Shown: piece by piece, positions 10,599 to 56,192 of the stretch
How the letters are laid out: every line of letters starts with the position of its first letter
Position numbering within the stretch: the first letter of the stretch is position 1
Origin: Phyllosticta citribraziliensis
Taxonomy: Eukaryota
Assembly: GCF_038025025.1 (NCBI RefSeq)
Contig: NW_027117342.1
Span: 62,001 to 126,000 of the forward strand
Length of the DNA stretch: 64,000 nt
Direction of reading: 5' to 3'
Made by a program: the position numbers and the translations under genes
Notes under the pieces: model-generated
Databases searched by the model: none
What the model saw: only the letters and a program-made list of their open reading frames with translations
What the model was told of the DNA's origin: nothing

Positions 10599-10757
10599 CA
10601 TAGATGCACCATCTGTGGCATGCAATTTGTGCGCATCGAACACGTCAAGCGCCACACCCGCACCAACACAAGATTTAGAAGCCTTTTGCGAGCACAATGT
10701 GTGGTAGAAAGCTTTCGCGTCGCGATCACATGGTGCAGCACCAAAAAAAAGCAGCAC
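10599..10757 (+). pseudogene. Degenerate tandem C2H2 zinc-finger pair (transcription-factor relic)
   Basis: Finger 1 HRCTICGMQFVRIEHVKRHTRTN (last His to Asn), frameshift in the linker, finger 2 KPFASTMCGRKLSRRDHMVQHQKK/QH (first Cys to Ser, frameshift in an A8 run). The host ORF begins right at the Copia LTR end. Confidence 0.8.
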
Positions 10758-13700
10758 ACACCTTCCTCAAAAAATGTCAGCGCAAAGGCCAAGGACAAAG
10801 ACAAGATCGAGGATGAGGACAAAATTAAGGCCGCCTCGAAGCCCTCTTAAACACCATCTTCAATGCAAGTGAACAAAATCAGATCATTAGCCCGCCGCTG
10901 CCGCCTGCGGTAAGTGGATCCCGCGTTATTCACCCCATCATGACCTACCGAGAAAGAAAAAGAAATGCCCATGGCTAATCTCAATCAGGGATAAGCAACA
11001 GGGACTCGAAAGAAGAACAGAATCCATGACTTTTGCGTCATTGATTTGTGGTTCAATCTATCCCGCACCATTACCACCACCACCACCATCAGCAAAGATG
11101 GCGCCGCCGCCGCCGCCGCCGCTACAGACTGCCGCACCCACGAGGCCGTGGAAGCGGGCCGCAGCGGCCGAGAAGAAAATCCACGACGACCTGGCGCAGC
11201 TGCCAGGTGCGCGAGCCGACGGGAGGAAGTGGAAGGGTCAAGGACACCGAGGTGAAGAATTTCGGTCGTCGCGCATCGCCTCGTTCTAACTCATCTCTTA
11301 AATTCCCTCCCCGCTCAAAGCGCTCAATCGCAACGTCGTCGAGCAGCAGCTCCTCTGAAGAGCCCTCCAGCCGCGAGGCCTCTCCCAATCCAGCGACACG
11401 TGGTGGCCGCGAAGAAGGGCCCACTTGGTTTTCAGGCATTCCAACATCGCCGTCGGGCGGGCTCAGGTACGCACGCGGTGGGTCTCGCTGGAGCTGCTGG
11501 CTGGCGGCGAGGACGCAGATCGAAACCATCCAACTGCGCGGCCATCTCCCCCCTCATGGGCACGATCGATCGGCCGACGCCCCACCACAAGACGTCCAAC
11601 CTTTCTGCGTGCGTCAATTGCTCGGATCGGTGATGGTGAATGAAAATTGGCTGAGCGCGGGCTACCGTTACCTTTTGGGTCCACCTTGCGCCTTTTGCTT
11701 TGTAGTGCCTTGCACTCCGCCACAGTCTTTACAGTAAACAATACGTACAAGTTGCTCCCCTTCCATCTCTTTCTATTGTGCTCGAGAGTCGAATCCAACT
11801 CGCGGCCAGCCACGTTCGGAATCTGCTCGCGCGAAACAGCTCCGGAAGGGTGAAAAGAGCGCCGTTATAAAGAGAAGTCTACTTCATTCTGGTGATAGGG
11901 GTAGGACGGCGTGAAGACCATTAGTGACGCTGTGGGCTTGTTTGTCTGACTCGCGCTCTTGGGTCTCAACTGGATGCTTCTTTGTCGCCGCTCTTGACGT
12001 CTCCTGCGGTAGGCCTGCCGTTATCCTCGAGATCAGTCTGTACAGAGCCCTACATGTTACCGCCGATCTGGTTGGCTCCGCCAGAAAGGTTGTCGTCTTT
12101 GTTGCTCTGGGAGTTCTGAAATGCAGCCAACTTGGATTGCTTGACGCTGTTAGAAAAGACGCGGCCGTTAATCACCTTGCGGGAAGGAGTTGAGGCCGCA
12201 GACAGGATGAAGAGAAAATCTTGGAAGTTAGGTATGCATTTGAGGAGGGTAGAGTATCCCCGCTCTCATGTCTTCATCCTAACTACCAAACAAGCCGTTT
12301 TACGTTTTGGCAGCCCCAGCGCCCCTGTCGCCGTCGGCATTGAGTGTGCCGCTTGTGTGGCGTCCGTCTCCCTCGTCGCCGCGGCACCGTCTGCGCTGTA
12401 CTTGTTCGAGGTTATTGGTTGCATCAGCATACAGGTGAGGAATTACACGCGAGAATTGGGGTCTCAGGAAGGAGGAAAGACGAAAGCAAGGACGCTTGAT
12501 GGGTCGGTTTCGAGTCTGGTGCTGGTGTATGTTGAGTCTGGCGTCCCCCGCGCGTTTAGAGTTGGATAAACTACTGGGAGAATGTCGCGCCCTCGTCGCC
12601 GTCGGCATCGTTTGCGCCTCGGGGTGTGCGCGGGTCTCCGCAAGCCTCGAGTCGACGACGAGCGTGTTATCAAAGGAGCAAGTGGAGGTCGGCCGGTTGG
12701 TGGTGTCAAGCCTTGTCGAGCATTCGCGGCTTGAAGCGCCTTGTCAAAGCATCAGCAAGACCAAGTCCGTAGAGGTAGGGATGAAGTGCAGTGACAGTGA
12801 ATCAAGATATCCATGTCGTGGGTTGTGCGAGCAAGGACATTCAGCGAGCGAAAGATGCCCAGGGGTGCCAGAGGACGGAGGTTTGAGAATGACGCGCGAG
12901 CGCACGGGTTGCGGGCGCGAGATATATCAAGACGGCTGTGACAAGTGGTATTGACACGCAAGGGAACAATGAAAAGCCGTCTCTGGTGATGAAAGCTCGA
13001 GGTTAGCGGTGGATTAGATCTGAGATTCAACGGGTCGCTGAGGACTTGCAGGTTGGCATTTGCGACGAATGCTCAAGATTCGCAGTGGACCTTGAGTCTG
13101 AGATTGAGCGGCTCGCCGAGGACTTGAAGGTCGTGTCAGAATCTGTGCTTGGCTTTGCGCGATGAAAAGGCCACCGTGAAGTGTTTCCAGTGGTCTCGCC
13201 CACGTCGGAGAATGTTGGTTGGGAAGAGCTGATGCGGACGAGGACGACGCGCCGCATGGCCTGGCGTGATTCACAATGATGGAGCTCATGACAGCGGCAG
13301 TAACAAGTACGTGTGGCAATTTCAACGGAAGAGAGTCCGTTGGTGGGTGTTGAGACTAGGAGCTCCTCGAGAAATCGAATGCTCCCGGAGGGACTGGAAG
13401 CAAAGTCGAGCAAGGGGCTGCGCCTGGCAAGGACGCTGCCTGTCGTTGGTCAGATCGTTTTCTCTTGCCCTTAGTCCAGCCTAGCCGGGGCCCAACCATC
13501 AAACAACTCGCGGGAAGAACTGCATGTAGCGCTGCATCCTCCCCTTGAGGTCGGCGACAAGCCCTGATTCTATTCGTCCCCGCTGGAGATACTTGCTACC
13601 GCTGCGTGCGGCCCCCACCTGTCAGCAGTCTACATATGCTGCATCAAATCAGCCTCGGGAGCCACGTAAATGAGGACTCCGTAGTTAAAGTCCAGGCTGA

Positions 13701-13970
13701 GAGCCGCTTGGAGTTCAGCGGGTGGATGAATCAACTCAGACAATTGATAGGCGATTTGCAAAGGTCGAGGCTCGGCCCCATCTTGCTGTCCAATTTTCCC
13801 ATCGAGACGTCTCCAGAGGGCCAAAGACCTTAGAGTACCTACACGACCGCACCCTATGCACGCCGCAGGTGCAAGTCAAGGTGCTTGCTTCTCGAGATGC
13901 AAGCCCTGGGCGGCGAGTCGATTTGAGTCAAGGTCGCGAGCGATTCCTCTGCGAACGCCGGCGCGCGGAC

Positions 13971-14064
13971 GGAATCATACTCGCTAGCGGGAATGGCCTT
14001 CTCGCCAGCGGGATTTGCCTTTTCGCTGGCGATCTCGCTAGCAGGAAGCACCCCCGCTCGGCAT
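13971..14064 (+). repeat. Short copy (locus A) of the dispersed CTCGCC(A/G)GCG palindromic repeat family
   Basis: GGAATCATACTCGCTAGCGGG...ATCTCGCTAGCAGGAAGCACCCCCGCTCGGCAT; shares its start with loci C/D and its tail with loci B/C. Confidence 0.85.
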
Positions 14065-14176
14065 GTGCCTCCTTCTTTGAATCGAGGCAAACAAGGGCTT
14101 TTCTGTGTTCCCGGCCGTGTCTACGCCTCAAGGTCGAATTTCTCTGCCAGCGTCACAGCTTTTGCGACGACGACGC

Positions 14177-14372
14177 CTATTTGCCCCAGACCCTGCGGAT
14201 GCGCCGCGCCAGTTGGATGTCTTTTTGCGTCAAGGTGACGCGCTTGGCGTGTATGGCGCAGAGGTTGGCATGTTCCGTCCATTGCACCATGTACATCTCA
14301 GTGGTATCCTGGAGCGCCTCGATCGCCGACGCCTGCCAACGTAGATGTTTTTCCCGGGGCTACTTCGCGCAC
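14177..14372 (-). pseudogene. cenH3: Centromeric histone H3 (CenH3/CENP-A/Cse4)-like fragment, C-terminal histone fold only
   Basis: VREVAPGK/(frameshift)[60 protein letters not shown] (not LRFQ) and the RRIR.VWG end are CenH3-type. Preceded by an intron-like segment 14448-14373 (GTGAGC...CTGAC...TTGCAG). No alphaN/alpha1 found upstream. Not in the ORF track. Confidence 0.9.
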
Positions 14373-14961
14373 CTGCAAGATCTGTCAGTCATGTGGACCG
14401 GGCGAAGGTGGATGCAAAGGAAAGGTGTGTAGAACCTGCGCGGCTCACGTTTGTGCTGACTCCGGGCCCTTGTTCTTGATATTCTCACGCATTTCCGCCT
14501 TGTGCTGTCGATGGGCGAGCGAATACGGGCCGGAGTTGATGAAATGGCTGGGGCGTGCGTGTGTTGGGCGGTCGGTCAAGGTCAGCAGTGGAGTGGGTGG
14601 ATGGAGAAGTGTTTGGGTCTCTGGAGGCAAAGGAGAATAGATGGTGTTGTGGGTGGGGTAAGGTAGGTAACACGCGACGCGCCGGTTTCGCGTCTCGTCG
14701 CGCAGCGCTACCTACCGTGCCACACCCACACCCACAACACCATCCCCCGTCTCGCCCTGTCCATCTCAACCGATAGTCACGACGCTCCGCCTCGTGCGCT
14801 CCTTGGCCCCATATTTGGGATTCTCTCCACACGAGCCGGCTGGCAAACCCTCCCCCGACCCACCACAACACACGCCAGCCGACAAAATGCCCTAAAGCGT
14901 TAGCCAGTATCGATGGCTTCGACTGTGCGGGCGGTCCCGTCTCTTTTGGAGCAGATGGAGA

Positions 14962-15744
14962 ATGGATGAGAGGAGAAGCGTCTTGGTGCGGCAAGAATAT
15001 GCACCTTCCCGTCTGGCTGCCCATCTCCAACTCTCACTTTGCTCCATCCGCTCGCGCCCATCGCGACCCTCGCCCCCGCGAAGCCAGAAGTGGAAGAAAG
15101 GTCGTGTCGTGTCCCCCAGGCCCGTCGCAAATGTCTCTCTTGCTGACCTCGTTGATGCTTGTAGACACTACCTCCAGACAACGCCGAAACTTGCGATGCA
15201 TCCTCCACCAACCTGTCATGACGACGTCAACCCGGCGGTCTTGACGAGCTTGCTACAGGACGTTACCAAAGCAAGAGCCCGCGTGCGCCAGGCCCGTCAG
15301 CAGCACGACACCACCGAAGGTTTGATCAGCTCCACCACCCAAGACCTCATCAAGGCGAAGGACACAGCTGCTGCAACCGACAAGGAGGCAACCAACCTCC
15401 AAAAGGCTCAGGTCGAGGTTGAAAGGATCGCCCAGCAATCGGCGGCCATCGAGGCTCTGCGCCAGATCGCCGCGCACAACAAACTGGAGCTCGACGGCGT
15501 GGCAGAAGCCGTCCGCACAGCCAACGACGACGTCAGAGTCAAGAGCCTCGCCAAGACGGAGGCTGAAGCGCACCTGGAGGAGCAGAAGCTCGTTCTTCGC
15601 CAGGAAATGCAGCATCTCCAGCAGAAAGAGGAGACCGTTTCCAGGGTCGCCTCGATAGACCATCTGCAGACTCTAGCAAGCGCCCTCGGACAATACCTAG
15701 AACATGAGAGAGGAGGACCGCCCCAGAAGAGGTCGAGGATTTGA
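14962..15744 (+). CDS. Orphan coiled-coil protein (260 aa) with C-terminal NLS-like PPQKRSRI
   Basis: Long ORF with heptad-like A/E/Q/K/L-rich helical composition; start codon uncertain. Confidence 0.6.
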   Translation: MDERRSVLVRQEYAPSRLAAHLQLSLCSIRSRPSRPSPPRSQKWKKGRVVSPRPVANVSLADLVDACRHYLQTTPKLAMHPPPTCHDDVNPAVLTSLLQDVTKARARVRQARQQHDTTEGLISSTTQDLIKAKDTAAATDKEATNLQKAQVEVERIAQQSAAIEALRQIAAHNKLELDGVAEAVRTANDDVRVKSLAKTEAEAHLEEQKLVLRQEMQHLQQKEETVSRVASIDHLQTLASALGQYLEHERGGPPQKRSRI

Positions 15745-18114
15745 CAACCGAGATCAAGGTATGTACCGGTGGGCAGTGCTTACTCCCCACATCCCTGACT
15801 TGGCGTCGATTTGGGCTAACGCTTCAAGGTAGTTTGATCGCCGAAGGTCCCAGGCTAAACACTCCTTTCGTACGCGTCGCCAACCATTTTTCGCCACCCT
15901 CAACCGTCAGGCCGTGTATCGCCGGCGCAGCGCAAACCACAATCATCTCCACAGCTCGTTTCAAATCACCACCACAATACCAGATTTAGGAGAGCAGAAA
16001 GGACAAAAGTGTGGTGGGACATGTGAAAATATGGGTTGCATATATGCGGAAGAGGGTTCTTCAAGGACCTGGGGTGATGCTATGTAGTGTATTAGCCAGG
16101 ATCCAGCATTTGGGACGGTCTGCGCGGATTGACCATCAAAACCCGCCGCCGTACTCTTCAGAATCAAACATGGGCGGTGCCATTCGACGGTCGCACTGTG
16201 GTTGACAAAGAAGATGGAGACGTGCAAGAATCCGGGTGAGGCTGGCGGGGGGTTTCGTGGTGGGAGAAAGATTCCGGGGTTTCTGAGCGTCGCATCGCAT
16301 CAGCTGCCTGCCTGCAGGTGGCCAGGTGTTCGGTTGTCGCCCCTGTCGTGAGGTCGGTGCTTTTTACTACCCACCCGAGACTGCGCTCCGCCTCCTCTCC
16401 GCCTGTCTGAAGACCCACTGCGACAACTGACACGGACGACGACCATGACCGACCGCGACGCGAATGCGCCTTGGCAATCCTGTCCCCACACGCCTGCAAC
16501 AGCTCGGAACGCGTTTCTTCTCGAGCAGACCGACTGTTGACAGCCGCAGCTTACGCCTCAAAGGTCCTGGCACCATCGACACCAACCCGCGAGCTCGCGA
16601 CGCTCTTGCGGACGGGACCTGACAGGCTTCTTCCGGCGGCCAAAGCGCTGGACAGCTCGGACCCGTGTGCCTGGTGGGCCGACACGGACAACAGTTCCTT
16701 GGCTCGGCCCTGCTCCGTACGACCAAGTCTTCTAGTTTCGCAGATCTTGTGTATCACCAAGTCATGTCCGATTGCGCCGCGTATCTAGCTACCCAATCAA
16801 TTGCCTCTTCCCCTCTCTTTGGCACACTCGGCTGCGGCTGCGGCGTCGAAGAATGACCCGCGAGAAACAGTCGGCGGTAGGCCCTGCGCAAAAAAGCAGC
16901 CAACCAACCAACCAATTGCTTTTGTCTCCCACATCACAGCACAACTTGCATTCGTCCTCAAAGAAACCGTGGGCAGACGGGAGCCAATTGTTGAAGCAGC
17001 TGCGCATCTACCTACCGAACTTCAGCGTTGTCGTCATGGTCGCCACGCTGGTTTCGTCTGGCGTTGGAACGGGCGAGGGCAACAGAACCAGCAAAAGACC
17101 GCGATGCAAGTCTTTCTCTACATGCAGAATTCACCTTCCATAGATCGTGCGCTTTCTCCCTAGCCCATGGACGTCTCTCCATAAAAGGATTCAGCAGCAG
17201 CACAGACGAGATGGACCTGGATCAATCCACACCTCCGCGCATCTCGCAGGGCACGCTCCAAGACGATCGCGGTACGGAGAGCGGCTGAAATGCATGCTTT
17301 GCAGCGAACCACTGTCCCTGCAGCCAGCGGCAGCCCGAGGGTACCGGCGGGCCGACGGGCGCACAGAAAACGACAAGGAATGCTCTGTGCCTGCCAGTCA
17401 GAGTACGGCAGGGCAGGGCAGCGTTCGCAACACACAGAACAGCAATCCCAAGCGGCATTGGATAAATCATCGGGCTCCTTTTCCCACATGTGGAGTATAG
17501 TGGTCCTGAAGTGAGTCCAGACGACGTGAGAAGGCTCAATTCTACACGCCCCGCGGCTACCTGCAAAGCCTCGGTCACGTCTCATAGACCCACCGATCGA
17601 ACTCCATGATATTTTCACCCGCGCGCAACACCCCTCTTCTAGTGTTCCAGATGAGATTGTGAGCGGGAGGGACGTGCCGAGAGACCATTCTCCATCATTG
17701 CTTGCTGGACCTGCCAGTGCTTTGCGGGATAATTACCAGAGCAAGCAGCCGGCTGGGGATCAACATCATCACCTCCATTTTCTTCTCTAGATCATATGGG
17801 ATGGCAGGACTGCGGGCGGGAGGTGAAACAAGGTGTCGGCGAAACTTTGGCAGTGTGCGTGGGCTGGTGGACGAAGAGATGGACTAGACGTCGTTTGCCC
17901 GCGGGCCCGTTTGCTCTGCTGCCACCAAGCAGCCTTTTCAGTTTATTGACTAATTGCATCCTCAGCCACCTCATTTCTTGACGCGACGACTAGTGTCTTG
18001 GGAAGAGACATGCTATGAGAAGCTTGGGATAAAGATGACTGCCTGGCTGGTTTCTTCACTACGTGTCCACCACCGACCAATGTCCAAAATACCACAACGT
18101 CCACCACCAAAGAA

Positions 18115-18774
18115 ATGAATGATGTTGCCGCAGAACCGTCTTCTTCTTCGTCCGCTTCTCCTTCTCCCCCGAACTCTCCTCTGGCTTCTTCTTCTTCTTC
18201 TCCTTCTCCTTCTCCCCTGGCTTCTCCTCTAGCCGCTTCTTCTTCTTCTCCTCCTCATCTTCGTCCTCGTCCTGCTCCTCCTTCTTGTCGGCCTCTCTCT
18301 TCTCCAACTCCTGTCCCGAGTTCTCCTCCGACCTCGCCAATCTCTTGGCTGGACCTAGAGGGGCAGGAATGTTTATCGGCAACGACGAAATCGGCACCAA
18401 AGACTCCCCGGAAGCAACAAGCATGTCGGGCTCCATCATTGCCGCCCCCTGTGTGCAAGAAGCGTCCACTGCTGCTCGAGGTCAAGGCAGACGAGGCAGA
18501 GCTCCGAGCATGGCTACTAGCTCCATCAACGCCAACACCGATTCGCAAGAAGCGTCCACTGCTCGAAAATGAAGCATCGGCTCCATTAATGCCAACACCC
18601 ATCCACAGGAAGTGTCCACTGCTCGAAGTCGGAGCAGACGAGCTAGAGCCTCAGACTAGTCGCAATGTACGCCGCCGGCTCTTCCGCCACACCAACACCA
18701 ACACCAACAACATCGACGCTGGGACTGGCGGCGGCACATCACCTGCACCTCTTCTCCTTGGGGTCGGGCGGTGA
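18115..18774 (+). CDS. Ser/Pro-rich disordered hypothetical protein with three KKRPLL(E)-type repeats and VRRRLF
   Basis: 219-aa ORF; module AAG(C/T)GTCCACTGCT repeated three times (~18459, 18550, 18610); N-terminal third is pyrimidine-rich microsatellite-like sequence. Confidence 0.4.
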   Translation: MNDVAAEPSSSSSASPSPPNSPLASSSSSPSPSPLASPLAASSSSPPHLRPRPAPPSCRPLSSPTPVPSSPPTSPISWLDLEGQECLSATTKSAPKTPRKQQACRAPSLPPPVCKKRPLLLEVKADEAELRAWLLAPSTPTPIRKKRPLLENEASAPLMPTPIHRKCPLLEVGADELEPQTSRNVRRRLFRHTNTNTNNIDAGTGGGTSPAPLLLGVGR

Positions 18775-19443
18775 TTGAGAGGGAGGGAATGTACAGCAGA
18801 TGAGAGAGGGAGAGGGAGAATTTGTGAGGAGGGCGTTCCGGTCGGTGGGTCAGGTTAGAGACACGGCCGCGGTCGGTCGGCGGGGGGCTAATGGTGGTTG
18901 GGGGGTTTCTTAAACAAAGTACATTCAATCCATCCCTCAGCTCATTGGCATTTTGTTTCTGTGCTTGTTCCTTCGGCTGTCCTTCAATTCAACAGTACAT
19001 ACGTGCTCGTATGGGTATTGGTCGGATGCCGTGATGCCTGGGTGTGGTTGGTGAGCGATGACGTCACACCTCCGATGCGTGATCAGATTCGATTTGATTC
19101 ATTCATGGCTTGAGGCGACCGAACAGGCGTCAAAGAACATGTAACTTAGGATGGATTCTTCTGCGGTGGGGAGGACGCAGCACATGGATGGCTTTGGTTG
19201 TTCCCCAAGTCCCAAGTCCCCACACTCGGTACCTCGGTTACCTGGGGGGTAACCGGGGCGCCGGCGGCATACATTACGTAAGGTTTCGGTTGCCGGCAAA
19301 TCGCCGTGGGTGCCTGAGGTGCCAATCCCGCCGGCAACAGCATTCCGTCGAGTCCCTCCCGTCCCCGCTCACGTCTCGACTCCCGTCGTCGCAACATCCA
19401 TCCTTTCCATCCACAGCTCTTCTTGCATGTCGTCCAACTGAGA

Positions 19444-19524
19444 ATGGCCATAACGCGCAGGTACCCATCCGCCCGCCAATCCTTGGACAGCGACGTCGAA
19501 CCATCGGTTGGAGACCCGCGCAGC

Positions 19525-19558
<34 letters not shown>

Positions 19559-21870
19559 GCGACGACGGTAACAGCCAAGGCGATAGTGGGACTGACGACG
19601 GAAATGACGACGGAAATGACGACGGAAATGACGATGGACATGACGACGAGCAACTCTCCGAGGACGGCATCTCTTCGACTCATTCTCACCCGTATCCCAA
19701 GCTCGCCAACCAGCTGGCAGCGTCGAAATGGGGCCTAGGCAGGTCCGTTTTTCTCCAACACTTCGACAGCGCTGCCTACAATTCGCGAACTTTCCTGCGC
19801 CAGCTTGTGTCCTGGGTAGAACATGGCTCGCTGGAAATGGATGAAATTCACCGGCAGATTCAAGCTACTTGGCACCATGTCTTCAAATGGCCCCCAAACC
19901 ACCCGTTCAGCCTAAAGATTCTCACCGTCACATTGGAGCGGCTGCAGGCCCAAGGGCTCGAAACAGACGTGCCGTTGCGAAAGGATAATCGAAAGAGGCC
20001 TACGAAGGGAAGGGCCCTCCAGATAGAGGCGCAAGGCGACGATGGCCTTGCTGCTCGCAAGTCCGCGCCGCCGGCGACAGAGGCTAGAAGAAACCCAAGC
20101 GCAAGTGCTTTCCGCGTCCAGGTTCAATATTGTGTTCATGAAACTAACTTCTGAGACACGCAGACTCTCCGAAGCAAGTTGGCGCGACCCACAGGTGTCG
20201 ACATCGACAACGACGAGCCCAATGCAGGGAATGCCCGCAAAATGACCCGTACCACTGCTGTTGCGCAGCAGCCTCGAGGTGAAAAACGCAAGCAGGCGGA
20301 CACCGCAATGGATTCGGACCTATTTTCTCCTGGCAAACGCGTAAGAGCAAGAAGCTCCACAACCAACATCATCACATACTCAAAAAAGCCAACGGCTACG
20401 CGGCTGGGGAATGCGGTAAGTAGAAGTGAAAACTCAACATATCTGGATACTCATCTGCTGCCAGCCTCTGTCAAATCCACGTACGCGCACGAGATCCCCA
20501 CCCAAAAGCGATCGTCCTAGAACACCTCAACCGAGACAATCCCCAAGCACTCCTTCTCCCGAAAGAGGCCGCGACGCAACTGACGAAATCCCCGACGAGG
20601 TCCCACACTTGGAGTAAGAGCATACACATCAGAGATGATAGGGAATCTAACGTTGAACAGTAGTAACATCTTGGACGACCAGGCCGAGGAGTCTCAAGAA
20701 ACAGTTTATGCGACCGGTAGTGAGGGCAGCAGGACCACTGAAAAGTCGATGGAAACTGAGTGGACTTCGGCTCCATTCATTCACGATGCTCTCAAAATTT
20801 TTGCCCCAGCCTCCTGCAGAATTCTGGACAGTTCGACCCTCAATCTTGATAGAAGAAGAGACTTTTCTTTTGGAACGCTCACGATTGGCAAACATGACAC
20901 AGAAGCAGCCCTCCCTGTTTTGAAAAACGGGAACCACTGGGGTCTCGCCACTTTGGATTTACAAAGCGGCACGGGCAAGTTTATCGACTTGCGCGACACC
21001 AAAGGCGTTGTTTCCCCAGACGTCAATGATGCTCTGGTGGAACTTGGGACGCGATTGTGCGCGGACAAGGAATGGCGTTTTTCCACGATGCCGACCGCCG
21101 CACCGCAACTCAACTCTGATGACTGCGGTCCTTACACTGTCGCTGCTGCTGCCATGAATCATTGGTATAGCAATGACTCTTTCCCCCTGGAGTCCATCGA
21201 CGCAGCCTTGTGGAAGGTCACTCTGGAAAGGGCGGTAGCGGAGTTCAGGTCGCCTTCAACACAAACCGAGCCATTGGGGCCCCTGGACTATGAACAGACG
21301 CCGCATCAAGAAATGCAGGAATTACTCGCCTCGAATTCGGAAATAGGTTCCCTCGACGATGCGTCCCTCTTTAGACTTCAACAAAAACTGCGGGAGAAGA
21401 TCGAGGACGTGATTCGGGACGTTGTACCGATTCGTTCACAACTGAGCGATGGGGGCTTGAAGAAGATGCTCGACGGCAGCAAGCAAGAGGCCGACAGGTT
21501 GCTGCAAGAGATGGACCAAGAAAAGAGGTTTCGCGAGGATTACGTCGCCATCAATGACGTAGCGAAAGAGCGAGCCAAGGCTTCGCGCCACGCTCTCCAC
21601 AAGGCCAAGCTCGAGAGTTGGGGCACGGCCGAGATTCGCGCCTACGACCAGGCGCTTGCGGGCCTTGCGAGGCGCAAGCAGGAGATTGGAGACGCCATGC
21701 GCGGAATCGAGGCGGCGATCCGGACGCGCGACCACGTTTTGGGGAAAGCTCTGGAGCAGCAATTGGAGGTTGGAAATCAAATTAAGGATTTGAATGCGAA
21801 GGTGGAAGAGGAGCTGGCCGCGCGGAAGAATAAGGTGTGGGAAGATTGGAACAGTGCCATGATGGGATGA
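19444..21870 (+). CDS. Ulp1/SENP-like cysteine protease (peptidase C48), 4 exons, 755 aa: acidic N-terminus, helical domain, disordered linker, C48 domain, coiled coil
   Basis: Exons 19444-20100, 20164-20415, 20465-20613, 20661-21870 join in frame (introns GCAAGT..CTAAC..CAG, GTAAGT..CAG, GTAAGA..CTAAC..CAG). Catalytic His (LPVLKNGNHWGL), Asp (FIDL), oxyanion Gln and Cys (PQLNSDDCGPY) are present. Confidence 0.85.
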
Positions 21871-23120: not shown

Positions 23121-23180
23121 CGACAGCATGCAGTGCCGACCGACAGCATGCAGTGCCGACCGACAGCATGCAGTGCCGCC
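23121..23180 (+). repeat. 20-bp tandem repeat x3 (CGACAGCATGCAGTGCCGAC)
   Basis: Directly visible. Confidence 0.95.
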
Positions 23181-23250
23181 CGATGCGGGTCGAGAGTCTC
23201 GCCCAGTGCGTCCAGCCCCCAAGAACTTTCACATCGCAGCGCCCCTTAAA

Positions 23251-23292
23251 GACATTGTGCTTGGACCGCCCAAGACTGCCTTTGCATCAAGC
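23251..23292 (+). pseudogene. Short fragment DIVLGPPKTAFASS matching a motif of a conserved Pezizomycotina protein (putative eIF4E-binding family)
   Basis: Motif recalled from memory; only 14 aa, embedded in ORF 23029-23451. Confidence 0.4.
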
Positions 23293-32710: not shown

Positions 32711-32725
32711 GCAGTGCAACGCGCC

Positions 32726-34789: not shown

Positions 34790-34824
34790 GACGCGACGCG
34801 ACGCGACGCGACGCAACGCGACGC
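34790..34824 (+). repeat. (GACGC)7 microsatellite next to a (GGC)n run
   Basis: Directly visible, one interrupted unit. Confidence 0.9.
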
Positions 34825-45822: not shown

Positions 45823-46056
45823 AAGCTCGCTGCTGCTCCTCGACCCGATCCGTCCAACTACAACCCGGCGGCGGACAGACAGGGTTCGTGCTGAGGAGCC
45901 TGTAGTCCTCGTCATTATTCCGGTCCGGGAGCTTGCTGTCCAGATCTTTGATGAAGCTCTCCTTCTACTCAATACTTCGTCCTTGCGTCATCTGTGGCGG
46001 CGGTCCTACTCCTCATGACCAGTTGGCCGAACTGCGAAAGGGGTTGCGACATTTTA
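45823..46056 (+). pseudogene. Fragment of a Ded1/Dbp1-like DEAD-box RNA helicase (motif Ia to GG), several frameshifts
   Basis: KLAAAPRPDPSNYNPAADR/VRAEEPVVLVIIPVRELAVQIFDEA/YSILRPCVICGGGPTPHDQLAELRKG/CDIL; PTRELAxQI, GG and GCDIL are recognisable. Confidence 0.88.
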
Positions 46057-46329
46057 GGACCATTTGTCACCAAGTTCGCAAGCTTGTTAAGAGGGCTGAG
46101 TAAAATCCATACTTCATCAACTCAGTAAGCTAAACTGTGGCATGTATCCAGACAGCAAGAACAGGTTCCTCGCCCGAGGTTGTGTAATTTTTGACCACAC
46201 CAACGCTGACACAACTACACTCGTACACGCCCTGTCTAACACCAGGAGGGCTCCTTTACCACATCAAGTTCCTCAATCAATTGATTCTCCCAATTGTCCC
46301 CTCTGGCCAGCTGTATTCTCTGTTCTGGA

Positions 46330-46383
46330 GTTTCCGGTAGATGTTTCCGGTAGATGTTTCCGGTAGATGTTTCCGGTAGATGT
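46330..46383 (+). repeat. 13-bp tandem repeat x4 (GTTTCCGGTAGAT)
   Basis: Directly visible, perfect copies. Confidence 0.95.
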
Positions 46384-47024
46384 CCTCTCCCTTGGGTGGA
46401 TCAATTGCCCAAGGATCCACCTTTTCGTTGTGGCTGGAGATGGCCGCATTGAGGGAAAAGCTGGAGCAGTGCCTTTTGGGCGCAGGAGTGGTGTGTACGG
46501 AAGCGGTCTCGCGGTTGGCGTTGTTCCAGGGCGAGAAAGGAGGGAAAGGAGCGCATTGAGAGAAGGGAATTGTGTACCAGACGGAAGCGCTCTCGGTGTT
46601 GGTGTCGTTCCAGGGCGGGAAGGGGGGAAGGGAGCGTATCTAGAGACGGGCACTTCTACTGGTTCCGGTTACCCTCGTCTTTCTGCCTGCCGCCGCTGTT
46701 CGGCTTCCTGGTCGAGTTGTTGGCGGGCAAATTCCTCGTCTCCACTGCTGCCACCGCTACTAACTGGGCCCGGCTGTTCTCACTATTGGCGTTGTTGCAG
46801 GGCGGGAAAGGAGGGAAAGGAGCGAAGTCAGGGACAACCTGGCACCGCTGTTCGGCTTCCTGGTCGAGTTATTGTTGGCGGGCAAACTCCTCGTCTCCGC
46901 TGCTGCCGCCGCTGCTGACTGGGCCCAGGCTGTCGAAGAGTCTTCCACTGAAATGAAGGACGTGGTCTTGATCATGTGCTCCCGGCATGTTCAAGAGGGT
47001 GAGGAGAACAGCCCTGCTGTCGCA

Positions 47025-47303
47025 AAGCCCACCAGGCCGACCAATTTTTGACGGGGGGCCCTTGTGCGTGAACACGAAAAAGATGTGGGAATAGAACATG
47101 CCGGCCATGCATGCGCGTCGAGGCTGCGGGGGTCGACGTTTGAGAGGCGCGGACCGGGTGTCGTGAAGCCCGCCAGGCTGACCGATTTTCGACGGGGGAC
47201 CCTTGTGAGGGAACACGAAAAAGATGTGGGAATAGAACATGCCGACCATGCGGGCGCGTCGAGGCTGCGGGGGTCGACGTTGGAGAGGCGCGGGCCGGGC
47301 GTT
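47025..47303. repeat. 141-bp tandem duplication x2
   Basis: GAACACGAAAAAGATGTGGGAATAGAACATGCCG at 47070 and 47211. Confidence 0.95.
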
Positions 47304-48451
47304 GTTGAGGTGGCGTTATGCTGCTGTTCTTGCGGATTTTGGTGTTGCGGGAGCTGCTCTCTGCTCTCATAGGAGGGCACGCCGCGGAGTGTCTCGCCGG
47401 TGTAAGGATCACCTTCATCGGCAGGAGACGTGGTGGACGTTTGGGCGCGTGGTGTGGCCGTAGTGTTGGTGCTTTTGCCGACGCGATTGCTGCGGTTTGC
47501 TGGCTCGTCTGCCTTTCTCGCGCTCCGTGCCCTGGCGGTTCAGTGACGAGCGGCTGGTGCTCTGGCGCAGCAGTTTCGGGGCGCTGGGCTCTTCGCTCGT
47601 GTCCTCGAAGGTCTTCAAGGACGGGGAGACGAGTCTTCGCAAGCTGAACGGTTGGAAAGGAATACCCGTTGGCGGCGCGGATGACCACTTGAACCCCTTT
47701 CTGAGAGCGGTCACTAATTAGCGTCACAGGAGGGGGCTCAGATTGAGGTCGAGATGACTTACCAAGAAATCAGCCGTGAGACAGCTGGCCTTGTTGTGGC
47801 CCTTGTACAGCTCCCAGGTCGGCTCATCCTAGAGCCAGGCTTGTTCCACGAGTCCAGATACGACTTCACGCGCCACAGGCATCACCGTCTTCGAACTCGT
47901 AGTCGCGGCAGGCAGCGCTCTTCTTGGCCGCCTTCTTCGCTGTCGGGACCGTTGTCGTCTCTTCTTTTTCTGTGCTGGAGAAGACACGCTACAACGATCG
48001 ACTGTAAGGACGTGGTTGAGGGTGGGGTTTCCCTCTTCTGGTGGCGTGTTTCAAGAGCCTCGAGGAGATGAGCAGCGTGCATGGGCACGACTCGATCCGC
48101 TACGGGCCCTGTATGTCATCAGAAGCGTGCCCAAAGAAATTCGGCAGAAGGGAAAAGCGGGTTGCTGACATACCTAGAACTCATACGCTACGGCAAGCAA
48201 GCTAGAGGGCACCGGGTGAGTTGCAGAGGGAGAGAGAGAGGTGGAGAGAGAGGTAGGGAGGGAGGTGGAGTGAGAGAGGAAAGGTTGAGCCTAAAGGTAA
48301 ACACGGCGAGGATGGGCATCTTTGTAGGCAGTGGCAGGGAAACACGCCAGGCAGTCGGCAAGGTGAGGTCAAGAGGGAGCGAGAGGGAGAGAGAGAGTAA
48401 AAGTAGGAGGTGAGGAGGGCAGCGGCCCGGCGGCGCTTACATAACATCAAT

Positions 48452-48694
48452 TCTCGCCAGCGGGAATCATACTCGCCAGCGGGTGACTCAGCCGCTCGCT
48501 CATGTGACCGGCATACTCGCCGGCGAGTATGGCTTTCTGGCTCACGTGACCGGCATACTCGCCGGCGGGTATGGCCATACTCGCTAGCGGGTGACTCAGC
48601 CGCTCGCTCATGTGACCGGCATACTCGCCAGCGGGAATCATACTCGCCGGCGGGATTGGCTTTCCCGCTGGCGAGTATGATGCCTGCTAGCGGG
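48452..48694 (+). repeat. Locus D of the dispersed palindromic modular repeat
   Basis: Begins TCTCGCCAGCGGGAATCATACTCGCCAGCGGGTGACTCAGC like locus C; ends in a hairpin with a 19-bp stem (one mismatch). Confidence 0.97.
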
Positions 48695-49653
48695 TTACCC
48701 CATTTGGGTAGCAACAACTTACCTAGAGCACAAATGGTGTTTCTTGCCCTAGTCTCTTTCCTACCTCATCTTTTTTCTCTTCCCTTCAAACTCTCTCCTT
48801 ACCGTTCCAGGCACAAGAAACAGCACGTCTGGTGGCGGCGCACGCCATCGCAGAAATGGGCGGTTTTAGCTAGCAAGACCACTAACGCGCAGCAGGAGAG
48901 GGAACTAGAATTGAGGGACGCGACCTCATATATAGAACACCTGTGTTATGAGTGCGCATTTAACATGTCTACAGCCGGGAGATGGATATCTGAGTGCCTG
49001 TAGAAACATGATATGAGCATCTTGTCCCGCACTAACCCCACCCAATCTGCACCACGCTCTCTAGCCAAGCACGTCTCACACAAGGCCCATCAAAGGCACC
49101 CACTACGGGCTTTATGGCGGAGGAGAACTGAAGCCGGAGAGTCCAGAAAGGGCGGTAAGAGCAGCATGAGGGCAGAACTTTACTCGTATTCTACACGTCG
49201 TCAGCGGATGTGCGACCGAATCCGCGTGACCCACTTGGTGGAGCGCGAAGGCGGGTTTTTAGTATCAAACTGCTTGATGTCGTTAGCTGGTGGGTCACTC
49301 ATGGACAAAGGGCGGAAAGTGGACAATGCGACAACAAGATGCCGTCCATGTGGGCGTTCGAGGGGGACGCCTGGGCTGGGTTCCCGTCGGGCCCGTCCTC
49401 CCTTGCCGCATTCTCTCGTCCACAGCTGCAACACCACGACGACGCCAACGAGACAACGACCGCACTCTACAATTCTCGCCACACCTGGACCAGTCGAGAG
49501 AGGCAATGGCAAGCCTCGTCGTCCTTCGTTGTTGCTGGCGATGCCCCAGAAGCCGCCGCCTCGAGCTCAGCCGCTTGCCGTCGAGTGTTGTGACTTGGCG
49601 AGTACGCTCGGTCAACTGACTTTGGAGGAGGGTGGAGCGAAGGAATGGAGAGA

Positions 49654-49721
49654 ATGGATGGATGGATGGATGGATGGATGGATGGATGGATGGATGGATG
49701 GATGGATGGATGGATGGATGG
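49654..49721 (+). repeat. (ATGG)17 microsatellite
   Basis: Directly visible. Confidence 0.97.
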
Positions 49722-52700
49722 TTGATGGAGGAGATGGTGGATTCATGAAAGAGGGGAATGCGTCATCGCACGGCTAACCGTTTTGGGTATGGCGCATTCC
49801 AACCACAAAACACCCGCGGCGACCTTCATGTCCCTGGCCTCTCTACAACATACACAACCCTCACCACTGCACCCATCCATGTCCATCACCACCGCACCAG
49901 CATTGCATCATTGACCCCAGGACGCCGTTCCACTCCCCTGCGACACGTCACCAACGGGCCCACCCCGCTTCCTCCTCCTCGCCCTCCGCCGCCGCAGTAC
50001 AACCTCTTGGTCTCGAACTTGCGCATCTTGCCAACGAGAGCAATACAAAGTTGGGCGACGATCGACCGAGATCCGCAGCGACAATGCTGGTCCAGCTCGC
50101 GTACCGCGACCGAACAATGGCGCTCAACCGCTCTCTCCGTCGCCTTCAGATCGCAGGCCTCGCCCAATGACCGGCAGTCGCAAAGCACAAGTCAGCGCAT
50201 TCCAGTCTCTCTGCCGCGCGTCGAAGCTGCGGCTCTTCGTCCGCAATTTGCATCGCTCGCTGCGGCTGGGACGCTGCACCCGGTGCTGCCTAATTCTGTA
50301 TGGCGCGTGTGGCACGAGCGAGGTTGGCTATGGTGATGAAACCACTGTGCCCGCTGTCACGACGAGCGAGCGTGGGCCGGCACATGGCAAAAGAGCAGTA
50401 CGACTGGTGAATTGGACCTGGAGGCTACACGGGCTCGGCCACCAGAAGTTGGAAGCGCCAAGTCATCGCCGACCTGAGAGACCAGCAGCCGTCTGCACGT
50501 GGGGAAAGGGGAATCCAGGCGGGGGACAAGGCGGCGCGCGCAGTCTCGCAAGATGTTGGGGATCAAGAAAGCGCTGACCAGCCAGGGCCAAACAATCGAC
50601 GCTGCCATCCACGCCCTCGTCGCCAGAAACACCACCCTCGTTAACTCCTTGGCACCCTTCTGACATCGCTCTCCTCCTCGTCATCCTCCTCGCCTACCGC
50701 CACGGCCGCCGCCCTTCAAGACCCAATCCACACCACGGCCCACGCCGCCATCCAGTACCCACGCGCTGGCGCGGTTATGCGACTCATACTTTGATTCAGA
50801 ACAGATGCATGCGGGCACGCGGCAGCTGAGCCGGATGCTGACGGACTTGGGGCAGTATTCTGCATTGCCCTCCTGGCAGCAAGAACAAGGCCGCGACGAC
50901 CACAACAAAGGCTGCGGCGGCGCCCAAGGAAAAGGCAAAGCCTGCCCCCAAGGCCAAAGCCAAGCCCACCGCCGTCCCTGTCGTCGAAAAGAAGGCCACC
51001 GAGCTCAGTCCTGCGGCCAAGGCATAGGGCGTGCGTCTGCGGACAGCACGTGCAGCAATGGTTCATGGTGGGAGCGGCAGCGGATGTTTTCCGCGCGGGC
51101 AACGGCGCTAGGAGTGCCAGCTGTGATACTGCCGCGGCGCCTGTGATCAAGAGATACGGATGAGGCCGAGTTGATGGTTGCGGACATGCCTGTGAGGGAG
51201 GGCTCCTCCGAGGCGTCGTCGCAAGAACTGGTTGACTTGTTTGACCTTGATCCTCCTCCGACACAGGCACCGTCGCTGCTGCTGCCTCAACTGCGAAATA
51301 CGGCTTCGCTCACGCCGACCGACTAAAGCTGACACTCCAACGCCAAAGCCACAACCGTACCTACACCTTCTGCCGCAATACTCCCGGTCTCGGCGCCGCC
51401 CGTTATGCCTCGCCATGGCAGCCGCATGGATGCCAGCCGACAAATACCTTTCCGTCAACTCCGGCCCTTGGCTAATGGCTCCAACTGACGCGAACGCGGG
51501 CCATTAATCCGGTGGGGGGTCCGTAGTTCCTCCTCGTCGAACAAGCAAATGGAATCCGGCTGAGGAAAGCTCGGGCGGGGATGTGAACAATCTACAGTAA
51601 AGAAAGACGGTGGGCTTGAGAGCCAGCGTGATGGACTTGGTCAACGGGGCATGGATGATGACCTGCCGCGCACAAGTTGGCTGTCGACCCAGCATTCCTG
51701 GAAGCATGACGTTCTCAAACTTCGATGCGTCGTGGTCGACGGGAACAACAATCATTTGAAAGACCTCAAAGACACCTTCCAAAAGCGCACCGACGGCTGA
51801 TCATTGCGAAGCGAGCGACTTTGGGTGGTTCGCCGCAGCCTCATGGAGGCGTTCGGAGCGCAGGACAGAGGCAGACTCGATGGAGGAGACGGCGAGAACG
51901 GATAGGCATGCGACCGACGGTGGTAGAAAAGTTGCATCACCGTCACCGCGCACCGCCCCCACCATTTCTCAAGTCGTTCCCAGAATCAAACCACCGCTGC
52001 CAGATTCTCCTCCAGTTTTGTGCTCACATCTTGCCCCGCCTTGGCTCCATTAACTGCCCCGGCCGAGAGGCAGCTGAGCAGCATCCTGCCACTTGGGATT
52101 GTGAGAAGGGGACCCGGCAGAGCAATGCAAGAGTCTGACAGCGTCGCAGATGATGAAGACACCAACATCAACGTGAAGATGGAAGACAGCAGCAACAGCC
52201 TGCTTGGCTCGTCCCGTCCTGCTTCCGCCTCAGGGATTCCCGCCGCAGATTCCCGGTTCCCTCCAGAGACATTCCCATCACGGATTCCTGCCGCAGATTC
52301 CCTCGGGCATGTTCCCTCCAGAGTTTCCACCACAGGTAGTCGGAACTGCAGCGCAGGCTGTACGAGAGAAAGCCGGTGGGAGGCACCAGAAGTTACGATG
52401 CGTCCGCGGCCGGTTGGGCGACAAGTGAAAGGGTGGTAGTAGAGCGGGAGATGAGACGGTCAGCATGCTGGATGCAGTGAGCAAGGCGAGGGTGGCGAGG
52501 CGAACGGGGTTGAGAGGACGGAGTCGAGAAAATGAAGACACGGAGACGACGCAACACACTCTTCCCCTCGTGCAGATCCATCGCCAACTTCTACTCTGTC
52601 TCATCACCGACTAGCCGCTCTCACTGTCCAACACATTCTTCTCGTTGAGCTTCACGCCTGTTGAAAACAAGTTCGCCTGCCTTCTTGCCCAGTGGCTAAT

Positions 52701-53650
52701 TAGGACAAGGGCGATTCGCATTCATGTCACCAGAATATCCCAAAGCTCTTGTGTTGACGACGACTTGGACACGCCAGCCATTCTCAACAAGTACGGCCTG
52801 AAGACAGGCATGGCGCAGAGTCATCTTGGGGACAGTGTCGTACATGGACGCGTCGGAGCCTGGAGTGGCCTCTTCAACCAGCGAGCGGAGACTGTATTGA
52901 CGACAAGTCCACGCGTTTCTGCACTCTCGTCTTGTAAAGGCCCGCACCCCATGCTTGCCTGCCAGTCACGGCGGCAAATTGACATTTCGCGCCATCGTGA
53001 ACCCACTCCGCTGCCGAGCGCTGCCAGGCTGCTTTGTCACACTCCGTCCTAGCGACAGAGCGACGTCTCATCGCTAAAATTTTACCAAAGCTCGTTTTGC
53101 GTCAATTCAACCGTCACCCGCCGGCCTGGCTGTGAGAGGCACCTCTTGTCATTCAGCCGACTGCTCCGTCGTGCCATCAAGACGGCCAGCATAGTCTCAA
53201 GCAAGCTCCCCAATTCCTACCCGCATGGGATGATACTGTTCGCGCCCTTAACAGCACGGCTGTTAATATGAAGCGAGTATCTAGTAGGACTAGAGGAGAT
53301 ATCCCTACTAAGCCAGCAGACGCGATGCACGTCGGACGCCAACTAAAAGAGTTCCGGTCAGTCCATATATATTACTCTTCACTTAATCCGTCTACACGAT
53401 AGTCACTGACGTCACAAAAGCTTGCCAAAACGGCCGAGTGCCGCCTTCCCATGCTCTTATCTCTAAGGGCGACGACAACACAAGTACGCGGTTGTAGAAT
53501 CACAGGCGCTGTGGAGCTTGCACAGCCAATTTGGAGCTACCATCGTCGAGTGAGATTAGGCACATCGTCTTTCACATAGACACCCCTGCTCTCTGCTCTA
53601 CCGTCAGGAGACCTTGCCGATATTGTTTCTCCGACCGCGCTGCATCCATC

Positions 53651-54160
53651 AATAACCACCACGCGTTTGAGCATCAAGTGAAACTTTGTCGAACTGTTGC
53701 TTGCTGGAAGGTTGAAGACAACATTGCCCAACTCTTCCTACTTGCCGACGTTCTTTCTCCGGTCGCGCTGCCTCAACAACCACCACGTGTTTGAGCATCA
53801 AGTGAAACTTTGTCGAACTGTTGCTCGCTGGAAGGTTGAGGACAACATTGATCTCTTCCTACTTGCCGACGTTCTTTCTCCGGTCGCGCTGCCTCAACAA
53901 CCACCACGCGTTTGAGCATCAAGTGAAACTTTATCGAACTGTTGCTTGCTGGAAGGTTGAGGACAACTCCAGTTGCGCCATCAACAACCACGACACATTT
54001 GAGCATCAACCGAAACTTTGTCGAACTGTTACTTGCTGGAAGGCTGAGGACAACTCCAGTTGCGCCATCAACAACCACGACACATTTAAGCATCAGGCGA
54101 AACTTTGTCGAACTGTTACTTGCTAGAAGGCTGAAGACAACATTACCTATCTCTTCCTAC
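53651..54160 (+). repeat. Five-copy tandem repeat (72-bp core, units of 124, 121, 87 and 87 bp)
   Basis: Core AACAACCACCACGCGTTTGAGCATCAAGTGAAACTTTGTCGAACTGTTGCTTGCTGGAAGGTTGAGGACAAC at 53651, 53775, 53896, 53983, 54070. Confidence 0.95.
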
Positions 54161-55283: not shown

Positions 55284-55997
55284 GTGGTCGACACTGGACG
55301 CCGCTCTTGCTTCTACTATTTATTATGCGTCCAACATGTACGTGTCTGCTGCTCCGGTCGTGGCCTTGCTGCCATTGCCATTATCTATCTACGGGCGCTG
55401 CCAGCGGGTCCAAAGAGAGTTTCCAGAAGGGGGGAGGTGGACTGGACCAGCATAGGGGTCTCTTGCATCCAACGCAGTGCCTGCCCGTTTATACCTCAGC
55501 TCGAAAGCGGGGGGCGAGCGATGGGGGGCTTCAGGCTGAACGAGCCGGACGAATTGGTCATCGTACAGCCGCCGGCAGGTGATCTGTTACGGACAACCAC
55601 CTCAGCCTCACTCCCGTCCACATCATTTGCTGCTGCACACGCTGCGGAGAGCCATGGCGGAAAAGCCATCCCATCACCCGACGAAGTAGGAGGAGGAGCA
55701 ACAGCACAGCAGCCGCCGCCGCAGCAAGACGGCCGTTGTCGCATCGATTCCCTCGAGGCCGTGGTGCGGGGACAGGATGCGAGGTGGGTCGAAGCCGTCG
55801 CCGCCGCCAAAGAGCGCCTGCGCGCTGCGTTTAGCGGCCTCGACCAACAGGTGGAGCAGCTCGTTGATGTCCTGCGCGGCATGCAAGCGCTGTGGCAGAG
55901 GTCCTCCACCTTGGCTCGCAATCTCACACTCCGGCACCACCTCATCCACCTCATCCCCCACCAGGTCAAGGCCAAGCAAGCTTTGCCAGCCCAGTGA
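55284..55997 (+). CDS. Hypothetical protein with C-terminal coiled coil (true start possibly 55521)
   Basis: 237-aa ORF; RIDSLEAVV...LDQQVEQLVDVLRGMQAL is heptad-like. Confidence 0.4.
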   Translation: MVDTGRRSCFYYLLCVQHVRVCCSGRGLAAIAIIYLRALPAGPKRVSRRGEVDWTSIGVSCIQRSACPFIPQLESGGRAMGGFRLNEPDELVIVQPPAGDLLRTTTSASLPSTSFAAAHAAESHGGKAIPSPDEVGGGATAQQPPPQQDGRCRIDSLEAVVRGQDARWVEAVAAAKERLRAAFSGLDQQVEQLVDVLRGMQALWQRSSTLARNLTLRHHLIHLIPHQVKAKQALPAQ

Positions 55998-56048
55998 CGA
56001 TAAAGAAAAAAGACTTGACCTCTACCTCTCATTCATCAATCCATGACT

Positions 56049-56192
56049 TGGGACCAAAGCTTCCCCGGTGGCGATTACGACGCCGTCGCCCGCCGCAAGG
56101 CTTCCGGAGCTCCAGCTGGCGTTGCTCCAGCCGCTGCTCCCAGCACCGCACGCCGACCAGCGGCTTTTGGCAACACCGGTGCGACAAGAGCC
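56049..56192 (+). pseudogene. BIM1: Fragment of EB1/Bim1/Mal3 (end of calponin-homology domain plus linker)
   Basis: WDQSFPGGDYDAVARRKASGAPAGVAPAAAPSTARRPAA matches the EB1 W/FD...(P)G.(D/E)YDAVARR signature; rest of the CH domain and the EBH domain absent. Confidence 0.85.

Follow-up and report, generated by a model that had tools for sequence, protein, structure and literature searches.

Isolated short pieces of unlinked core genes in a transcribed stretch of Phyllosticta citribraziliensis DNA

Gene fragments that lie apart from their parent genes are known from several systems. Maize Helitrons and rice Pack-MULEs capture fragments of genes, from which chimeric spliced transcripts arise. 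Short copies of distant sequence, with the donor left unchanged, also arise when double-strand breaks are repaired with templated insertions (filler DNA), or through microhomology-mediated break-induced replication (MMBIR) and fork stalling and template switching (FoSTeS). The locus considered here is a stretch of 64,000 nucleotides of Phyllosticta citribraziliensis DNA (the window; contig NW_027117342.1 of assembly GCF_038025025.1, positions 62,001 to 126,000), the GC-rich part of which carries isolated pieces of genes for a CenH3-like histone, Lsm12, importin-11, a Ded1/DDX3 helicase and EB1/Mal3. The reading favored here, with confidence about evenly balanced, is that these pieces are old, short insertions made at the DNA level (about 60-230 bp), below the length that attracts repeat-induced point mutation (RIP), and that some of them now serve as exons. 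The closest described case is that of the truncated core-gene copies on the accessory chromosomes of Zymoseptoria; passages of Goodwin et al. (2011, PMC3111534) describe the genes of the Z. tritici dispensome as “usually truncated” copies of core genes that come from most core chromosomes. As in those passages, the host is a Dothideomycete, annotatable genes are few, and many unique genes are of unknown origin; the dispensome-type combination of few conserved genes with truncated core-gene copies is found in this stretch. Unlike the dispensome, the locus lies on a 2.47-Mb contig and is common to a second species, and no presence/absence polymorphism was seen among two assemblies of the species and a sequencing run of another organism. 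The pieces are also far shorter than the truncated genes of those passages, and the GC content is high rather than lowered. No relevant literature on such a pattern in Phyllosticta was found, and none stands in the portions consulted of the main text of PMC9073689, supplements aside.

Conserved coding content is scant in the window. When all 572 stop-to-stop open reading frames (ORFs) of at least 60 aa were scanned against Pfam at its curated cut-offs, three passed (Histone, AD and RVT_2), each covering a partial domain, and the statement in a first-pass annotation that the region has no recognisable intact conserved gene is thus true at the Pfam level. About a dozen more matches, including zf-C2H2, DEAD, JmjC and Ribosomal_60s, have E-values of 1e-4 to 1e-2, which is the chance range for some 700 queries, and of the shorter ORFs (38-59 aa, 383 in all) the first 128, at 10148-28701, gave no Pfam match. 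No tRNA or Rfam family was found in the window. The stretch is not gene-empty, with intact lineage-specific ORFs and spliced transcripts present. Of the eight pieces that the first-pass annotation had named, the CenH3, Lsm12, importin-11, Ded1/DDX3 helicase and EB1/Mal3 pieces stand as isolated fragments, while the C2H2 pair is weak and the She4 and GPPKTAFAS pieces are without support. Searches with full-length importin-11, H3-family and Lsm12 proteins, each of which aligns to the window at its piece alone, also agree with the view of the pieces as short copies taken from unrelated genes; for the coding sequences of CenH3, Lsm12, importin-11, Ded1 and EB1, partial matches are all that the window contains. 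The pieces are, therefore, not parts of split genes that are still intact. That they would be exons of such local genes was the starting expectation, which failed when full-length relatives gave no further exons. To regard the locus as ordinary gene-rich DNA, in which the pieces would simply be those exons of intact, intron-containing genes that are best conserved, would suit its GC content (55-62%) and its real short introns, but is hardly credible when full-length homologues reveal no more exons anywhere in the window, when frame shifts occur within pieces, and when the 3/572 ORFs that pass the Pfam cut-off are all partial.

Two of the pieces are 3'-terminal. In the histone piece, the minus-strand ORF 14180-14359 matches Pfam Histone with an E-value of 1.1e-20 and 74.6 bits (cut-off 26.4) over profile positions 70-122 of 122. 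Six H3-family proteins, chosen from 120 listed proteins, align by tblastn at residues 83-135/137 only, opposite 14344-14183, and the N-terminal half of the histone fold is absent from the whole window in the same search. The CenH3 piece, first placed at 14177-14372, is borne out by the Pfam match and by the alignment of H3 proteins at this piece alone. The frame of the piece shifts by one base within an A5 run, and “VREVAPGK” is read in a different frame. When the 60-aa histone piece was used in a word search, multi-histone fusion proteins of 57-72% identity were all that came back, with no close fungal CenH3 among them; the call of CenH3 rather than H3 follows from the 66-72% identity to canonical H3 together with motifs typical of CenH3. 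The Lsm12 piece, first placed at 31715-31942, is likewise confirmed. Its ORF (31718-32182, minus strand) matches Pfam AD with an E-value of 1.6e-8 over profile positions 44-90 of 90, and P0128, a full-length protein of 240 aa, aligns by tblastn only at aa 168-240, at 31945-31718. P0128 is regarded as Lsm12-like by virtue of its 90%-identity cluster, which includes a Lasiodiplodia Lsm12-like protein; a search of the PDB with the Lsm12 ORF gave nothing useful. Many public “proteins” of 36-99 aa, from Botryosphaeriales-like contigs, consist of the Lsm12 last exon alone, and probably arose when bacterial-style ORF callers were applied to fungal DNA. These short proteins start at an identical Lsm12 position, which suggests that the last exon of the parent Lsm12 gene starts there. 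Directly upstream of both 3'-terminal pieces lie intron-like 3' ends, with CTGAC (CenH3) or ACTGAC (Lsm12) followed 12-14 bases on by CAG. No poly(A) follows either piece, and a single A8 run occurs in the whole 53.5 kb.

The other pieces are internal to their parents. Importin-11 of Phyllosticta citriasiana (1042 aa) matches by tblastn at aa 161-229 alone (34468-34260; 85% identity over 61 aa), with a frame shift near 34289, which vindicates the importin-11 piece first placed at 34255-34462. A faint continuation follows (31% over 75 aa); the rest of the protein, about 970 aa, has no match in the window at E-values up to 10. Among 25 importin-11 loci from fungal metagenomes, the high-scoring segment pairs break after aa 135 in nine, and none of the 19 loci that span aa 136-229 has an internal break. 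The importin-11 piece thus lies within an exon, and its ends do not follow mRNA structure. As a consequence, the RNA-supported intron 34497-34555 just upstream of the piece must be local. Copying of whole exons from lariat intermediates was rejected as the source of the pieces on the same ground, the importin-11 piece being intra-exonic in 19/19 related loci. For the DEAD-box piece, first placed at 45823-46056, the assignment held in part: DDX3X (E 0.021) and Ded1 (E 0.18) match in the PDB over 27 aa, with homology going on in another frame, and non-local contigs cross the piece, while the Pfam DEAD match (E 0.0095) is below the cut-off. An exact 13-nt direct repeat, coding FDEA, occurs at 45816 and 45947; the two copies, one where this piece starts and one within it, are 131 bp apart, and the upstream copy continues like the parent (FDEAR). 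The repeat suggests a template-switch or slippage event. The EB1 piece, first placed at 56049-56192, is a short one that matches S. pombe Mal3 aa 101-126 in the PDB (E 6e-4), and it gives no CH or EB1 match in Pfam.

Decay offers another origin, in which gene duplicates that were once complete, or a segmental duplication, would have been eroded down to the pieces. Their age (frame shifts, 10-20% divergence, presence in another species) and the faint continuation after the importin-11 piece fit such an origin. It is nevertheless quite improbable, considering that identity at the sharp edges of the pieces falls from 85% to nothing (importin-11), that some 970 aa of importin-11 and the N-terminal halves of the histone and Lsm12 are absent at E-values up to 10 or 1, and that the parents are unrelated genes with pieces on both strands. 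Full-length duplicates would, moreover, be targets of RIP, yet the region shows no RIP.

The stretch is transcribed and spliced on both strands. Contigs of the sequencing runs X1, X2, X3 and X6, where X1 is P. citribraziliensis and X6 is another organism, were aligned to 27000-46999 at a likeness of at least 80%. In X1 and X2, 13 of the 15 joints listed have GT..AG or CT..AC ends, so that these runs behave as RNA, their RNA nature being read from the joints only. Contigs of X1 identical to the window cover 27421-29911 (with two introns), 29887-30932, 37965-40984 and 42338-45638. Other X1 and X2 contigs match only 27421-27536 or 44005-44139, or, in X1, end at 31942, and are then unlike the window, and contigs that cross pieces do so with gaps of 6 bases at 31743, 5 at 34281, 4 at 45870 and 3 at 45893; the gap at 34281 coincides with the tblastn frame change in the importin-11 piece. 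On these 20 kb, 45 of 87 X1 contigs are below 99% identity. Judging from the match patterns rather than from the letters of the contigs, the partial and gapped contigs would be transcripts of parent genes expressed elsewhere, and such parent-like transcripts, matching pieces alone or differing from them by small indels, speak for the first-pass interpretation of captured pieces.

None of the 13 intron joints is present in X6, which thus behaves as DNA. Its contigs are collinear with the window from 27.5 to 46 kb at about 87-94% identity (6-13% differences), and one of them (45305-46084) spans the helicase piece with both flanks. This collinearity indicates that the mosaic predates the split of the two organisms, and the frame shifts and 10-20% divergence of the pieces make it look old and static. 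Repeated acquisition, as the first-pass annotation had it, is not supported in view of the same collinearity and the spanned helicase piece. A joined form found in X1, X2 and X6 omits exactly 34259-34453, the core of the importin-11 piece, and has 8 other letters instead; a second variant in X6 has 13 letters in place. The presence of this form in X1, from the species itself, and in the DNA-like X6 argues that a copy of the flanks free of the importin-11 piece exists as DNA; this copy may be a site of ancestral type or else a paralogue from which the piece was lost.

If the copies were made from RNA, a retrotransposon reverse transcriptase would have made pieces of cDNA, by switching templates or through truncation at the 5' end, and these would then have been inserted. 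Parent-like contigs are indeed expressed, with depths of 9483, 6855 and 3411 among the matches listed (best-supported first, and hence biased), the CenH3 and Lsm12 pieces are 3'-terminal, and reverse-transcriptase scraps lie nearby. Such a route appears distinctly unlikely in the face of the intron-like 3' ends directly upstream of the CenH3 and Lsm12 pieces, the absence of a poly(A) run after either, with one A8 in 53.5 kb, and the internal position of the importin-11, helicase and EB1 pieces. The comparison with processed pseudogenes and retrocopies runs the same way: the pieces are defective copies of expressed genes at a distance from the parent, and two are 3'-terminal, but there is no poly(A), two pieces have intron-like ends upstream, and most are internal. 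The intron-like ends at CenH3 and Lsm12, the intra-exonic position of the importin-11 piece and the lack of poly(A) together favor, without proving, a template of DNA rather than RNA, presumably arbitrary genomic segments of about 200 bp.

Under the favored reading of short insertions at the DNA level, short stretches of genomic DNA would have been copied into the region as templated insertions, during break repair or replication template switching, on both strands, while their unlinked core-gene parents would have stayed full-length elsewhere. The copies would then have drifted, with frame shifts and 10-20% divergence, and have been inherited by at least two species, and several of them would have been recruited as exons by local transcripts and models of orphan genes. 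The likeness to templated insertions would include the 8-letter alternative that replaces the 195-bp importin-11 piece and the 13-nt direct repeat at the helicase piece (45816, 45947), whereas so many in one 54-kb stretch would be unusual for such repair. It appears plausible that the parents are intact in this genome, that break repair was the route, and that escape from RIP accounts for survival. Every verified piece is under about 240 bp, compared with the limit of about 400 bp and 80% identity stated in passages of Hane and Oliver (2008, PMC2621366), and the expectation that the pieces fall below the RIP size limit is thereby upheld. It is proposed that neither copy nor parent is mutated because the copies are far below the RIP length. 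RIP has, however, acted close by. In 1-10460, TpA/ApT is 1.89 and (CpA+TpG)/(ApC+GpT) is 0.08, which is heavy RIP, whereas in 10461-64000 the GC content is 55-62%, TpA/ApT 0.50-0.65 and (CpA+TpG)/(ApC+GpT) 1.20-1.26, which is no RIP. X1 contigs differ from the window in a balanced way (C>T 21, G>A 21, T>C 27, A>G 33), with no RIP direction.

Neither RIP nor a transposase is found in 10461-64000. This bears on capture by transposons (Helitron, Pack-MULE or CACTA), in which old non-autonomous elements would stand in a row to form the mosaic, with five arrays of a 21-nt repeat as their subterminal repeats. The arrays are of one family and one orientation (starting at 13971, 23529, 35205, 48434 and 61447) and contain TGACTCA, CACGTGAC and a 20-nt palindrome (CATACTCGCCGGCGAGTATG); their spacing is 9.5-13 kb, the last three lying about 13 kb apart. 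They could be a promoter element or the remnant of a mobile element. Along with the arrays, pieces of several genes on both strands that are read into chimeric spliced transcripts, and the Copia reverse-transcriptase scraps at 24322-24786, speak for capture by transposons. In the likeness to Helitrons and Pack-MULEs, short pieces of unlinked genes are adjacent, transcribed and spliced into chimeric RNAs, and their parents would be intact; a difference is that the host here is a fungus. Among the 572 window ORFs, however, Pfam finds no transposase, no Helitron Rep/helicase (Helitron_like_N, PIF1-type) and no DUF3435 recombinase, Helitron termini not having been searched for. Terminal inverted repeats flanking the pieces or units were sought over the whole window, and the only matches are within the palindromic 21-nt arrays and low-complexity runs. 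From one array to the next the sequence has no second copy in the window, and a second species has the region in collinear form. Capture by transposons is thus possible but unlikely.

The idea of an accessory compartment or the interior of a giant element, put forward in the first-pass annotation, is likewise not supported by the setting. The mosaic locus was placed on a contig of 2,469,777 bp (that of the proteins P0003 and P0125), the same locus was found in a second P. citribraziliensis assembly on a contig of 598,952 bp, and the 572 ORFs include no transposase or DUF3435; no Pfam match to a Starship captain (DUF3435) lies between the window edges, where the scope of this result ends. The best explanation of 10461-64000 is that it is a lineage-specific stretch of a large chromosome beside a RIP-degraded repeat block. 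The present evidence reveals neither a new kind of mobile element nor an actively collecting compartment, and the pattern resembles ones already described in other fungi and in plants.

Several points weigh against an origin of the pieces as short DNA insertions. The parents are inferred from the match patterns of contigs, not from parent loci or exact DNA boundaries. A word search with the ORF of the importin-11 piece led to one cluster, of P. citriasiana and P. citricarpa, and not to a host protein. The form that lacks 34259-34453 could be a paralogue, its depth is above that of local contigs, and X6 has two variants of it. At the CenH3 and Lsm12 pieces, the upstream intron-like ends may belong to the locus itself or be due to chance, and the intron upstream of the importin-11 piece is clearly local. 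The five 21-nt arrays, 9.5-13 kb apart, are unexplained and could be the remains of mobile elements. P0126, a gene model discussed below, is only predicted, in another assembly, and the X1 introns leave no ORF that joins its two pieces. The density of pieces, finally, is that of this stretch alone.

The fate of the copies is clearest in the gene models of the region. The Lsm12 piece forms the C-terminus of two annotated proteins, P0125 and P0126. P0125 matches the window by tblastn at 100% over aa 12-137 and has the Lsm12 piece, native stop included, at its end; its intron, 32095-32173, is supported by the RNA joint 32094/32174 with CT..AC ends. P0126 (556 aa), predicted from the second assembly, is made up of array-coded sequence, the importin-11 piece, tandem repeats and the Lsm12 piece, part of a 21-nt array being read as its N-terminus; given the introns of X1, no ORF joining the importin-11 and Lsm12 pieces exists. 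The suggestion that pieces could enter chimeric genes is thus supported for P0125, with its RNA-supported intron, and at the level of a model for P0126. A bolder reading, which must be called improbable, is that of a gene nursery in a RIP-proficient fungus, to which ordinary duplication of genes is closed because RIP destroys the duplicates. Here DNA copies of core exons shorter than 400 bp, some with their own splice acceptors, would be repeatedly pasted into a transcribed region of orphan genes and assembled into spliced genes, the expressed 137-aa protein with the anticodon-binding-domain piece of Lsm12 at its end being one product, and sense and antisense pieces might feed small RNAs that act on the parents. 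Should the origin by short DNA insertions be true, the locus would be a concrete and datable case of a RIP-active fungus that reuses pieces of essential genes, and very short DNA copies would evade the RIP defence and could be wired into new transcripts. For annotation, it is a warning that the “AD domain-containing protein” P0125 and the 556-aa P0126 are built on captured scraps and are not true Lsm12 or importin genes.

Table 1. Features of the 64,000-nucleotide window, in order of position (nt, nucleotides; aa, amino acids)
Feature	Position	Strand	Remarks
AT-rich block	1-10460	.	heavy RIP signature, GC 27.5%; borders the mosaic
Possible C2H2 zinc-finger pair (weak)	10599-10757	+	second finger frame-shifted
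21-nt repeat array, copy 1	13971-14072	+	
CenH3-like histone fragment	14180-14374	-	C-terminal half of the fold, to the stop codon
Intact 428-aa orphan ORF	20584-21867	+	HW...DCG motif, coiled-coil tail
21-nt repeat array, copy 2	23529-23628	+	
Copia-type reverse-transcriptase scraps	24322-24786	+	two frames, about 465 bp, not RIP-mutated
Claimed She4/CRO1 piece	27247-27417	-	without support
115-bp patch	27421-27536	.	matched by a high-depth contig that diverges from the window at both ends
P0125, annotated 137-aa gene “AD domain-containing protein”	31718-32207	-	new N-terminal part plus Lsm12 piece
Lsm12 fragment	31718-31945	-	last 73-77 aa to the native stop, frame intact
Tandem repeats, 93 and 132-158 bp units	32343-33212	.	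inside a minus-strand transcript
Importin-11 fragment	34259-34468	-	aa 161-229 of 1042; 195-bp core 34259-34453
21-nt repeat array, copy 3	35205-35840	+	127-bp higher-order unit
Orphan protein P0003 (662 aa), intact 664-aa ORF	38941-40932	-	transcribed; X1 contig 37965-40984, 100% identity
Tandem repeats, 92-116 bp units	43826-44548	+	unit looks like a mini-exon plus GTAAGT...CTGAT...TAG intron
Ded1/DDX3-type DEAD-box fragment	45866-46056	+	motif Ia region, frame-shifted
21-nt repeat array, copy 4	48434-48704	+	
EB1/Mal3 fragment	56046-56126	+	end of CH domain, about 20-27 aa
21-nt repeat array, copy 5	61447-61783	+	

The remaining features are listed with the pieces in Table 1. A protein search with the 664-aa ORF 38941-40932 (minus strand) returns an exact self-match only. 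The central part of its product, P0003, falls among Peptidase_C48 clusters of the Atlas (score 0.92), has no Pfam match, and resembles a Ulp1/SENP (C48) protease; the AlphaFold model of residues 340-560 has a mean pLDDT (predicted local distance difference test) of 47 and is too poor for use. The 428-aa ORF has GC contents of 0.58/0.43/0.61 by codon position and a weak RickCE_cat match (E 0.16), and with its motif, read by eye, is a possible CE-clan (Ulp1-like) protease. An HW...D...DCG motif and a coiled-coil tail occur in both of these orphan ORFs, 38941-40932 on the minus strand and 20584-21867 on the plus strand, and BLASTP between the two finds no significant similarity.

Among the weaker candidates, the C2H2 pair at 10599-10757 gives a zf-C2H2 match with an E-value of 0.0024 and 18.7 bits, under the Pfam cut-off of 25.2, with the second finger in the other frame. 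The She4/CRO1 piece has no match in Pfam, the PDB or the Atlas, and the ORFs overlying the GPPKTAFAS motif (23251-23292) have none in Pfam. The patch 27421-27536 is matched by a contig of depth 9483 with X2 loose ends at 27421 and 27536 and indels at 27483 and 27492. The Copia scraps match Pfam RVT_2 over profile positions 34-72 (E 0.0013) and 75-129 of 244 (E 1.3e-8), the latter at 24514-24786 on the plus strand with 35.2 bits against a cut-off of 31.6. These scraps have normal GC and no RIP signature, though the RIP-mutated block is only 14 kb off.

In the tandem repeats at 43826-44548, a foreign contig matches 44005-44139 only, and a weak Ribosomal_60s match (E 0.0013) is found; they look like an amplified exon-intron cassette, which may derive from the gene of an acidic ribosomal protein. 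In contigs of X1 and X2, position 43827 is followed after 5 letters by 30885, which lies about 13 kb back; this joint may reflect a paralogous arrangement or a low-complexity artefact. More tandem duplications or microsatellites lie at 46497-46933, 47018-47305, 53613-54160, 59161-59334 and 49654-49742, including (ATGG)22. The unusual number of local tandem duplications, with units of 69-158 bp, suggests that slippage or unequal exchange occurs readily here.

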